NCBI GenBank assembly: GCA_965201045.1
Contig: OZ241746.1
Coordinates: 3,851,402 to 3,883,401, forward strand
Length of the DNA: 32,000 nt
From: Pseudomonadales bacterium
Lineage (GTDB): Bacteria > Pseudomonadota > Gammaproteobacteria > Pseudomonadales > Endozoicomonadaceae
Direction: 5' to 3'
The notes below the pieces were generated by a model, which made no database searches, was not told the DNA's origin, and was given only the letters and a program-made list of their open reading frames with translations. Shown in pieces: positions 12,685-13,509 of this stretch. Positions within the stretch are counted from its first letter, which is position 1. The number at the start of each line of letters is the position of its first letter. Made by a program: the position numbers and the translations under genes.

Positions 12685-13509
12685 TAAAAAAAATTAAATC
12701 TCTCTCTTTAATACCTTGGCAGATAAAAAAGTATCATCAAAAAAAAGTCTTACCGGTTTATTATTGGCGACATAGGCTGATTAATTTGCTGATGGTCTTG
12801 CTTATTGTTTTAATTATTTCACGGATTTTCTATTTGCAGGTAGTCAACAAACACTTTTTGCAATACCAGGGAGAGCAGCGCAGTGTACGCTTTATGAGTA
12901 AGCCTGCGTACAGAGGTATTATTTTTGATCGCAATGGCACAGCACTGGCGGTAAGTACCTGTCTCTTAGTCACATTTTTTAAGTTTTTTTGTTCACAGTT
13001 TTATTTTCTGCTGAATATATCGACCTTTACTGAACGCACCGTGGGCTGAGCCTGTCGAAGCCCGGCTGCTTTTGACCTCTGGGCTTCGACAGGCTCAGCC
13101 CACTGATTTATGCCAAAAAGACTGGTATATTCAGTAGCAGGCAACCTGCCAGAATAAAAATCAGAGCTTAAAAAATGTGACTAAGAGACAGGGTAAGTAC
13201 CCCGGTTATTTCGGTCTGGGCGAATCCGGGAGAATTAATTAAAGCAAAAGATAGCTGGAATGAACTGGCTGCGCTGCTCAAAATAGATAAATCAGCACTT
13301 ATTAAAAAAATTCAGGATAATCGTCATCTCAATTTTATCTATTTAAAACGCCATCTCATTCCTGAAGATGCACAAAGGATCCTGAAAAAAAAGATTACTG
13401 GTGTCTATGGTCTTGATGAATTTCGTCGCTATTATCCGGCCGCTGCAATTACTGCGCAACTAATAGGTATGACCAATATTGATGATCAGGGACAATCTGT
13501 GCTTGAGCT
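12681..13509 (+). pseudogene. ftsI: ftsI (PBP3) 5' fragment (~200 codons), interrupted by a MITE and 3'-truncated
   Basis: N-terminal TM segment plus ..YRGIIFDRNGTALAVST|MITE|PVISVWANPGEL...YYPAAAITAQLIGMTNIDDQGQSVLEL. Homology then stops at the junction with the SP stub. Confidence 0.9.
12959..13191. mobile_element. Complete MITE (B1) inserted in the ftsI fragment
   Basis: Terminal inverted repeats CTGTCTCTTAGTCACATTTTT and AAAAATGTGACTAAGAGACAG. The 9-bp direct repeat GGTAAGTAC flanks it (12950-12958 and 13192-13200). The 23-bp perfect stem is 13041-13063 / 13081-13103. It has no ORF. Confidence 0.92.

Follow-up and report, generated by a model that had tools for sequence, protein, structure and literature searches.

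In the window examined here, which is the whole analysed stretch of 32,000 nucleotides with a GC content around 36% (positions 3,851,402 to 3,883,401 of the source contig OZ241746.1, length 5,663,055 bp) from the genome of about 5.66 Mb of a gammaproteobacterial sponge symbiont, a palindromic element of 233 bp was found inserted into a copy of ftsI. Very probably, the element is a miniature inverted-repeat transposable element (MITE) that belongs, within the IS4 family of insertion sequences (IS), to the IS50/Tn5 group. It is regarded as non-autonomous because it is small, has inverted ends, is bounded by a 9-bp target duplication and encodes nothing. This reading had been put forward in a first-pass annotation made from the sequence alone; it was supported by the present analysis, in which every testable part of that interpretation held.

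Four complete copies of the element are present in the window. Copy 1 (12959..13191, 233 bp) has perfect terminal inverted repeats of 25 bp, while those of the other three are perfect over 21 bp. Copy 2 (17511..17744, 234 bp) occupies the identical ftsI site in the next tandem unit, and so do copy 3 (22759..22990, 232 bp) and copy 4 (27343..27576, 234 bp) at theirs. Exact matches to the 19-nt end CTGTCTCTTAGTCACATTT number 12 in the window, where 0.01 would be expected; eight of them are the ends of the four complete copies, and the other four are the right ends of incomplete copies, finishing at 11931, 16484, 21731 and 26316. The 9-bp direct repeat GGTAAGTAC is exact on both sides of all four complete copies (12950-12958 and 13192-13200 for copy 1). 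The coordinates, inverted ends and duplication first reported for the complete copies were all verified in the window. Folding of the whole element gives one long hairpin of −71 kcal/mol as DNA (z = −14.4) and of −123 kcal/mol as RNA (z = −16.7), with a GC-rich stem arm that was found 16 times, two per copy in eight copies, where 0 are expected, in agreement with the long palindrome and GC-rich stem described initially. The longest stop-free stretch within the element is 59 aa, and tblastn revealed no Tn5-like transposase in the 32,000-nt window, so that the earlier statement that neither element nor window holds a transposase open reading frame (ORF) stands. No promoter, terminator or U-tract was called in the element by the terminator and promoter scan.

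The element end agrees with the Tn5 mosaic end at 16/19 positions, with the IS50 inside end at 15/19 and with the outside end at 14/19, the three reference sequences being those of established knowledge. Scanning the 19-nt end against one genome per species gave at least 42 stretches, which among the matches listed belong to Brenneria, Pectobacterium, Buttiauxella, Pluralibacter, Samsonia, Photorhabdus, Methylobacter, Enterovibrio, Berkiella and several metagenome-assembled genomes (MAGs). The sponge element and these stretches have only the terminal 20-22 nt in common. In one MAG, identical ends of 19-22 nt bound a 1476-bp IS that is present twice (L005 3004-4479 and L028). Along its whole length, the 463-aa product of L005 is matched by Tn5 transposase (PDB 1MUS, E = 1e-88), and it contains the domains PF14706 Tnp_DNA_bind, PF01609 DDE_Tnp_1 and PF02281 Dimer_Tnp_Tn5. 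In addition, a TARA scaffold (L062) carries a 1465-bp element whose left 22 nt are those of the MITE end and whose transposase, with PF14706 and PF01609, is 44% identical to that of L005. The nearest full-length relatives reach at most 41% identity to plasmid-borne IS4-family transposases. Since Tn5-type transposases use the same end in other organisms, the assignment of the ends to the IS50/Tn5 type made in the first-pass annotation has a broader basis than sequence similarity.

Short non-coding elements of 114-334 bp are delimited by these ends as well (L009, L010, L020 with two, L025 and L040). Elements of about 333 bp were located in Brenneria (L025 468-801, L039 1180-1512, L040 2247-2579), one of 245 bp in Enterovibrio (L020), one of 191 bp in a gammaproteobacterial MAG (L009 260-450) and one of 114 bp in Methylobacter (L010 645-758). 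Six same-ended elements, in five other bacterial genomes, carry perfect 9-bp duplications, and one Brenneria element bears CTGTCTCTTATACACA, which shows identity with the Tn5 mosaic end along 16 nt. These comparisons show that unrelated MITEs have arisen repeatedly from one conserved end sequence, CTGTCTCTTAGTCACATTT, in several gammaproteobacterial lineages. The whole MITE gave no match in the plasmid collection, and its 25-nt end gave none in the JGI metagenomes.

The interrupted ftsI copy is a fragment on the plus strand (12681..13509) consisting of codons 1-93, the MITE and about 106 further codons. Deletion of the element together with one 9-mer yields ..DRNGTALAVSTPVISVWANPGEL.., and the restored FtsI aligns gaplessly across the junction to Pseudomonas aeruginosa FtsI/PBP3 (query residues 26-198, E = 6e-45). 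GGTAAGTAC occurs once in the restored gene. Since the alignment with PBP3 is gapless with a single 9-mer, the 9-mer was native once and its duplication was made by the insertion. The proposed restoration of the ftsI frame is borne out by this alignment, but what is restored is only a fragment of about 200 codons of a truncated gene. FtsI homology ceases near residue 198 in every copy in the window and in the copy of a related strain beyond the window end (L049), which identifies the interrupted ftsI as a pseudogene remnant. Therefore, the insertion need not have cost the cell anything. In four sponge runs, no contig joined the ftsI halves without the element, and so the ftsI insertion is considered fixed.

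The four incomplete copies, called MITE', lie at 11709..11931, 16262..16484, 21509..21731 and 26094..26316. They measure 223 bp, have 92% identity to the complete element and share its orientation. In all four, the right end is intact and adjoins rsmH at CGCATGGCG, exactly where intact rsmH reads ...TTTTCGCGT|CGCATGGCG. On the left side, the native homology that follows the orphan ORF of each array unit enters the element at a common CACA(G/T)TTTTT, as observed by comparing window positions 11677-11740 with 8359-8430 and 30614-30685. This common motif indicates a microhomology deletion of about 630 bp, in which the left inverted repeat lost 12 nt and rsmH its 5' half. The rsmH 3' fragment (11932..12378, plus strand) follows MITE' directly and starts at about Pfam position 160 of 309. 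The last unit holds an intact rsmH of 304 aa (30814..31728, plus strand), with the uninterrupted MITE' target site at 31282. The eight window copies thus go back to two independent events, insertion into ftsI and insertion into rsmH, each since amplified to four copies. The initial count of eight was correct, but the four incomplete copies form a separate, 92%-identical subfamily at a second site. For the complete copies, the view that one insertion was later amplified was upheld, the amplified segment being the 4.55-kb tandem unit.

These units form a head-to-tail array that runs from about 5.7 kb to the window end. One unit of 4553 bp spans 11677..16229 on the plus strand, with head-to-tail repeats up to 30612. 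The order within the unit is MITE', the rsmH 3' half, ftsL, ftsI codons 1-93, the MITE, about 106 ftsI codons, a 78-bp scrap of an ORF of about 213 aa, an upstream region and an orphan ORF about 720 aa long. The first and last units have native intergenic and rsmH 5' sequence at the position of MITE'. The unit junction lies at 13587/13588, where no MITE is present. Since the junction is not at a MITE, the MITEs were ruled out as the cause of the tandem amplification, and the element was a passenger in it.

Dispersal elsewhere in the genome, which the first-pass annotation had predicted, was studied by comparing the Logan contigs of four sponge runs (X1-X4) with the element and its flanks. Depth in the flanks was 155-200 in X1, 17-20 in X2, 445-543 in X3 and 511-537 in X4, about 5-6 times that of single-copy symbiont contigs in the matching runs (about 23-32, 4-6, 108-125 and 78-98, respectively). 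Within the element, depth rose to 3,400-4,100 in X1, 330-390 in X2, about 13,000-15,000 in X3 and about 11,600-13,300 in X4, that is, 17-26 times the flank depth in the four runs. This implies, indirectly and from word depth, some 80-145 copies per genome at 85% identity or more, of which about 15-19 belong to the MITE' subtype, recognized by a CCGA insertion at 12985. Past the last base of the element (13191), 10-16 contigs per run diverge with only about 50% agreement, which indicates many different flanks. MITE-bearing contigs of up to 6.4 kb were found at single-copy symbiont depth. The predicted dispersal was therefore borne out indirectly, by the depth ratio and by the many flanks, and consistently in the four runs.

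An approximate palindrome ending in G/C is seen at both window targets, GGTAAGTAC (context G-GTA-AG-TAC-C) and CGCATGGCG. A target of this kind is known for Tn5, according to the account of Goryshin et al. (1998) given in PMC1525189. The same-ended elements of other genomes tend to sit in the loops of GC-rich hairpins, with the empty sites TCTCCCGGAGGGAGA, CTCTCCCAAAGGGAGAG and CCTCCCCTTGCGAAGGGGGAGG, and their target 9-mers are of the CCC(N3)GGG type (L005, L009, L010, L025, L039 and L040). In the sponge runs, the consensus around the insertion is ...ACCCCTTCCTTTAGGG | element | CCCTTAGGGAGGGGGG..., again of this hairpin type. This suggests a target preference for palindromes like the repetitive extragenic palindromic (REP) sequences. 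The insertions into ftsI and rsmH, both in coding DNA, are off-type.

The element is composed of two Tn5-type ends, the putative binding sites of a transposase, of AT-rich arms and of a central GC-rich hairpin. This GC-rich core is a hairpin of 63 bp (13041..13103) with a stem of 23-25 bp and the arm GGGCTGAGCCTGTCGAAGCC. Its GC content is 65%, compared with 36% in the genome. When metagenome contigs were scanned for one 20-nt arm, GGGCTGAGCYTGTCGAAGCC, at least 120 contigs (L063-L182) were returned, which among the matches listed have a GC content of 50-74%; IS50-like ends flank none of these listed matches. Arm matches share more than the arm itself, with CCGTTC upstream and, in 64/116, the partner arm GCCCTTCGACAAGCTCAGGGCGAACGG 1-77 nt downstream, giving the family consensus CCGTTCGGGCTGAGCYTGTCGAAGCCC..GCCCTTCGACAAGCTCAGGGCGAACGG. 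The typical member is intergenic, with up to 21 copies per replicon in Sphingobium megaplasmids, and family copies also occur in Polaromonas, Comamonas, Novosphingobium, Sphingopyxis and Methylotuvimicrobium. In the symbiont contigs examined, the hairpin was found only within MITE copies. The core hairpin is, by its sequence, a member of a REP-like palindrome family widespread in Proteobacteria and in metagenomes, and the MITE looks like Tn5-type ends placed around such a palindrome. A literature search for the hairpin sequence and its typical translations found no paper naming it, and it may well bear another name.

In Rfam, the segments 13041-13103 and 12953-13111 matched only RF02901 (Aggregatibacter sRNA 41, a small RNA) below threshold, at 39.8 bits compared with a gathering value of 97, besides microRNA precursors. 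The metagenome family members L079 and L090 also match RF02901 weakly. Membership in these Rfam families was rejected, the matches being read as an effect of a perfect long stem and a common palindrome. The RF02901 stem, GCUGAgCUUGcCGAAGC, is nearly the same palindrome, so that one representative of the widespread hairpin family may be contained in RF02901 itself.

It is conceivable, though rather unlikely, that the element is a chimera whose Tn5-type ends have taken up a REP-like hairpin, otherwise free-standing in GC-rich Alpha-, Beta- and Gammaproteobacteria, and now spread it. If the hairpin also serves the element, for instance as a fold-back uniting the ends or by termination of read-through, the success of the MITE would depend on a borrowed structural module, and REP-like modules would be able to move between distant lineages on transposon ends.

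By analogy with Tn5, mobilization of the MITE would start with a Tn5-like DDE transposase, supplied in trans, that binds the 19-bp ends and pairs them in a synaptic complex. The element would then be excised by the hairpin cut-and-paste route of Tn5 and integrate where a roughly palindromic target is cut with a 9-bp stagger. Transposition of this kind would have built the roughly 100 copies. In the window, the sequence shows one landing in ftsI at GGTAAGTAC and another in rsmH at CGCATGGCG. The rsmH copy, having lost 12 nt of its left end along with the rsmH 5' half, is now immobile, and both copies were later multiplied passively, four times each, by unequal recombination of the 4.55-kb array. 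As the cognate transposase is only putative in the symbiont, mobility today is an inference.

Four points weigh against the assignment to a mobile IS50/Tn5-type MITE. Neither the window nor some 90 kb of other sponge-assembly contigs yielded a Tn5-like transposase. The copy number comes from assembler word depth and not from enumerated loci. No empty-site polymorphism was seen in the four runs, so that recent mobility too is only inferred, and the origin of the core is left unexplained by this assignment.

Other explanations were also considered. In view of its core, whose REP-like family has many intergenic copies in Sphingobium and other Proteobacteria and is never flanked there by IS50-like ends, the element might be a palindrome of the REP/REPIN type spread by a REP-associated tyrosine transposase (RAYT, Y1), with Tn5-like termini by coincidence. 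However, sequences of the REP/REPIN type have neither target duplications nor terminal inverted repeats of 19-25 bp, while an exact 9-bp duplication is present here, the ends equal those of real Tn5-like elements, and the hairpin occurs only inside MITE copies in the symbiont contigs. Since only the 63-bp core resembles the REP-like family and the element as a whole is not of REP/REPIN type, this origin is considered highly improbable. Another view would take the element as a module selected by the host, such as a hairpin that stabilizes or terminates RNA or a small RNA, and abundant because of its function. The extreme stability of the hairpin, the position of MITE' 32 nt past the orphan ORF stop and the weak Rfam echo of the Aggregatibacter small RNA would fit such a role. 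This is nevertheless very unlikely, as no U-tract or terminator was called, the Rfam score is far below gathering, the ftsI copy lies within a dead gene, to which a role of this kind cannot apply, and inverted ends and duplication are left unexplained.

That the element is the in situ deletion remnant of one full-length IS, never mobile when short and multiplied only by tandem amplification, would account for the complete copies sharing one site and the partial copies another. In contrast, depth implies about 100 copies with many flanks, and the window itself holds 92%-identical versions of the short element at two sites, which makes a deletion remnant extremely unlikely. The chance of an assembly artefact of a repeat-rich region is close to nil. 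A near-identical tandem array is difficult to assemble, but array, MITE positions and junctions recur in the independent long-contig assemblies ERZ25067984 ctg12087 (28 kb) and ERZ24894574 ctg5597c, the array is found again in short contigs of at least four further sponge metagenome assemblies and one NCBI MAG, and the region was retrieved from the Logan contigs of 15 public runs, all of them sponges or sponge metagenomes. The element and the array explain the fragmentation of short-read assemblies at this locus in the symbiont. The non-autonomous IS50/Tn5-type MITE is retained as the preferred reading.

With regard to a resident transposase, the sponge-run contigs gave no match to the L005 IS at 80% likeness or more; therefore, the resident enzyme, if any, is not close to that of L005 at the DNA level. 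Four AT-rich Tn5-like proteins (P0088, P0049, P0027 and P0056) were rejected as candidates: three have other ends, similar to the IS50 inside end, no Tn5-like end was found on the contig of the fourth, and none of them comes from sponge samples. Two contigs reached through an ISAs1 transposase (L059 and L060, 27 kb), only putatively of the symbiont, contained no MITE and no Tn5-like gene. The sponge-assembly contigs are crowded with other transposases (IS66, IS1380-type, DUF4277 with DDE_Tnp_1, IS110, DDE_5 and IS630-like) and also carry a reverse transcriptase gene, as seen at L048 13008-16345, L049 5124-11331, L059 and L060. This crowding fits a genome in a phase of insertion-sequence expansion.

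Several rearrangements were observed around the ftsI remnant. Every ftsI copy examined ends near codon 200. In a related strain, in the continuation past the window end (L049), an ISAs1-family element (1553-2802, 380-aa transposase, ends CAGGGCTGTCCCATC) lies within the truncated ftsI, 54 bp upstream of the MITE and with the 10-bp duplication GAGTAAGCCT. The MITE copy of this strain lacks one hairpin arm by a deletion of about 38 bp, as expected for an unstable long palindrome. In another strain (L048 10567-10975), the last MITE of the truncated ftsI is rearranged, with about 200 bp inserted between element positions 63 and 50-89.

The window starts with the 3' part of murF, an intact mraY, two minus-strand ORFs of about 213 aa and a minus-strand aroB (TIGR01357). 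The division and cell wall (dcw) cluster is fragmented: lgt-thyA, and not ftsI-murE, precedes murF-mraY (L001), and mraY is not followed by murD (window 210-1810). Between 1800 and 4660, a tandem duplication of about 1.67 kb contains the minus-strand ORF of about 213 aa (2121-2759 and 3782-4426). A repeat of about 216 bp stands upstream of this ORF three times (2775-2989, 3048-3263 and 4442-4656), and a 78-bp piece of its 3' end is found at each array-unit junction (13510-13587). Within the array, ftsL (12391..12684, plus strand, 97 aa) is co-amplified. A second copy of rsmH (8562-9275), cut short near codon 218, contains an in-frame stop codon at 8865-8867.

The orphan ORF of the unit (14061..16229, plus strand, about 720 aa) has paralogs at 6184-8358, 9670-11676, 18615-21476, 23857-26061 and 28447-30612. 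No Pfam or NCBIfam match was obtained for it, and its homologues come only from symbiont or sponge samples. Identity between copies is 97-99.7% in the non-ORF part of the unit and 89-96% in the orphan ORF. The ratio of nonsynonymous to synonymous substitution (dN/dS, Nei-Gojobori) is 2.2-4.6 in 15/15 pairs, with dS of 0.013-0.041, similar to non-coding divergence, and codon positions 1, 2 and 3 have 114, 99 and 52 variable sites, respectively. These values suggest that the tandem gene family is under diversifying selection. The arrays of other strains have different length variants. Copy 4 of the orphan ORF, at 18615-21476, encodes 953 aa owing to an in-frame internal duplication of 807 bp, and the 953-aa form is also present in an independent assembly. 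The AlphaFold model of the ORF, with a mean confidence (pLDDT) of 46.6, was too poor for use. The hairpin module and this fast-evolving tandem orphan gene are probably of more interest than the MITE itself. The roughly 100 copies of the element and the many IS families mark the symbiont genome as being in a phase of IS/MITE expansion, with its dcw cluster broken.

Compared with IS50/Tn5, the element has similar 19-bp ends, which begin with CTGTCTCTTA, and the same 9-bp duplication of a roughly palindromic site with terminal G and C. It differs in the lack of a transposase gene, in its size of 233 bp versus 1534 bp, and in an interior that is a fold-back with a REP-like GC hairpin. In its mode of action, it would correspond to a pair of Tn5 ends lacking their transposase. 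The MICs and MITEs derived from IS231 in the Bacillus cereus group are likewise non-autonomous IS4-family derivatives mobilized in trans via their ends. They belong, however, to a different IS4 subgroup with different ends, make duplications of 10-12 bp and often carry passenger genes. The short elements of Brenneria, Enterovibrio, the MAG and Methylobacter resemble the sponge element in their termini of 17-22 nt, their perfect 9-bp duplications and their non-coding nature, but their interiors are unrelated (only the ends align by BLAST) and none has the GC-rich hairpin.

Insertion of IS4-family elements into GC-rich or REP-like palindromes has been reported for ISRm22 and other REP-targeting IS (Tobes and Pareja 2006, PMC1525189), whereas the sponge MITE carries the REP-like hairpin inside and not around it, and at both window sites it has entered coding sequence. 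QMITE1/2 of Coxiella burnetii are gammaproteobacterial, have a long hairpin and 7-9-bp direct repeats, and can insert into genes (PMC5896051; PMC10969869). They are similar in size and as long-hairpin MITEs, but their sequences are unrelated and their parent IS is different or unknown. No Tn5/IS50-type MITEs are included in the 2024 MITE review (PMC10969869), and this type is hardly represented in the MITE literature searched, for which the sponge element provides a clean and well-bounded example. It is new as a family member, with no match in the plasmids, JGI metagenomes and literature searched, but not a new kind of element.

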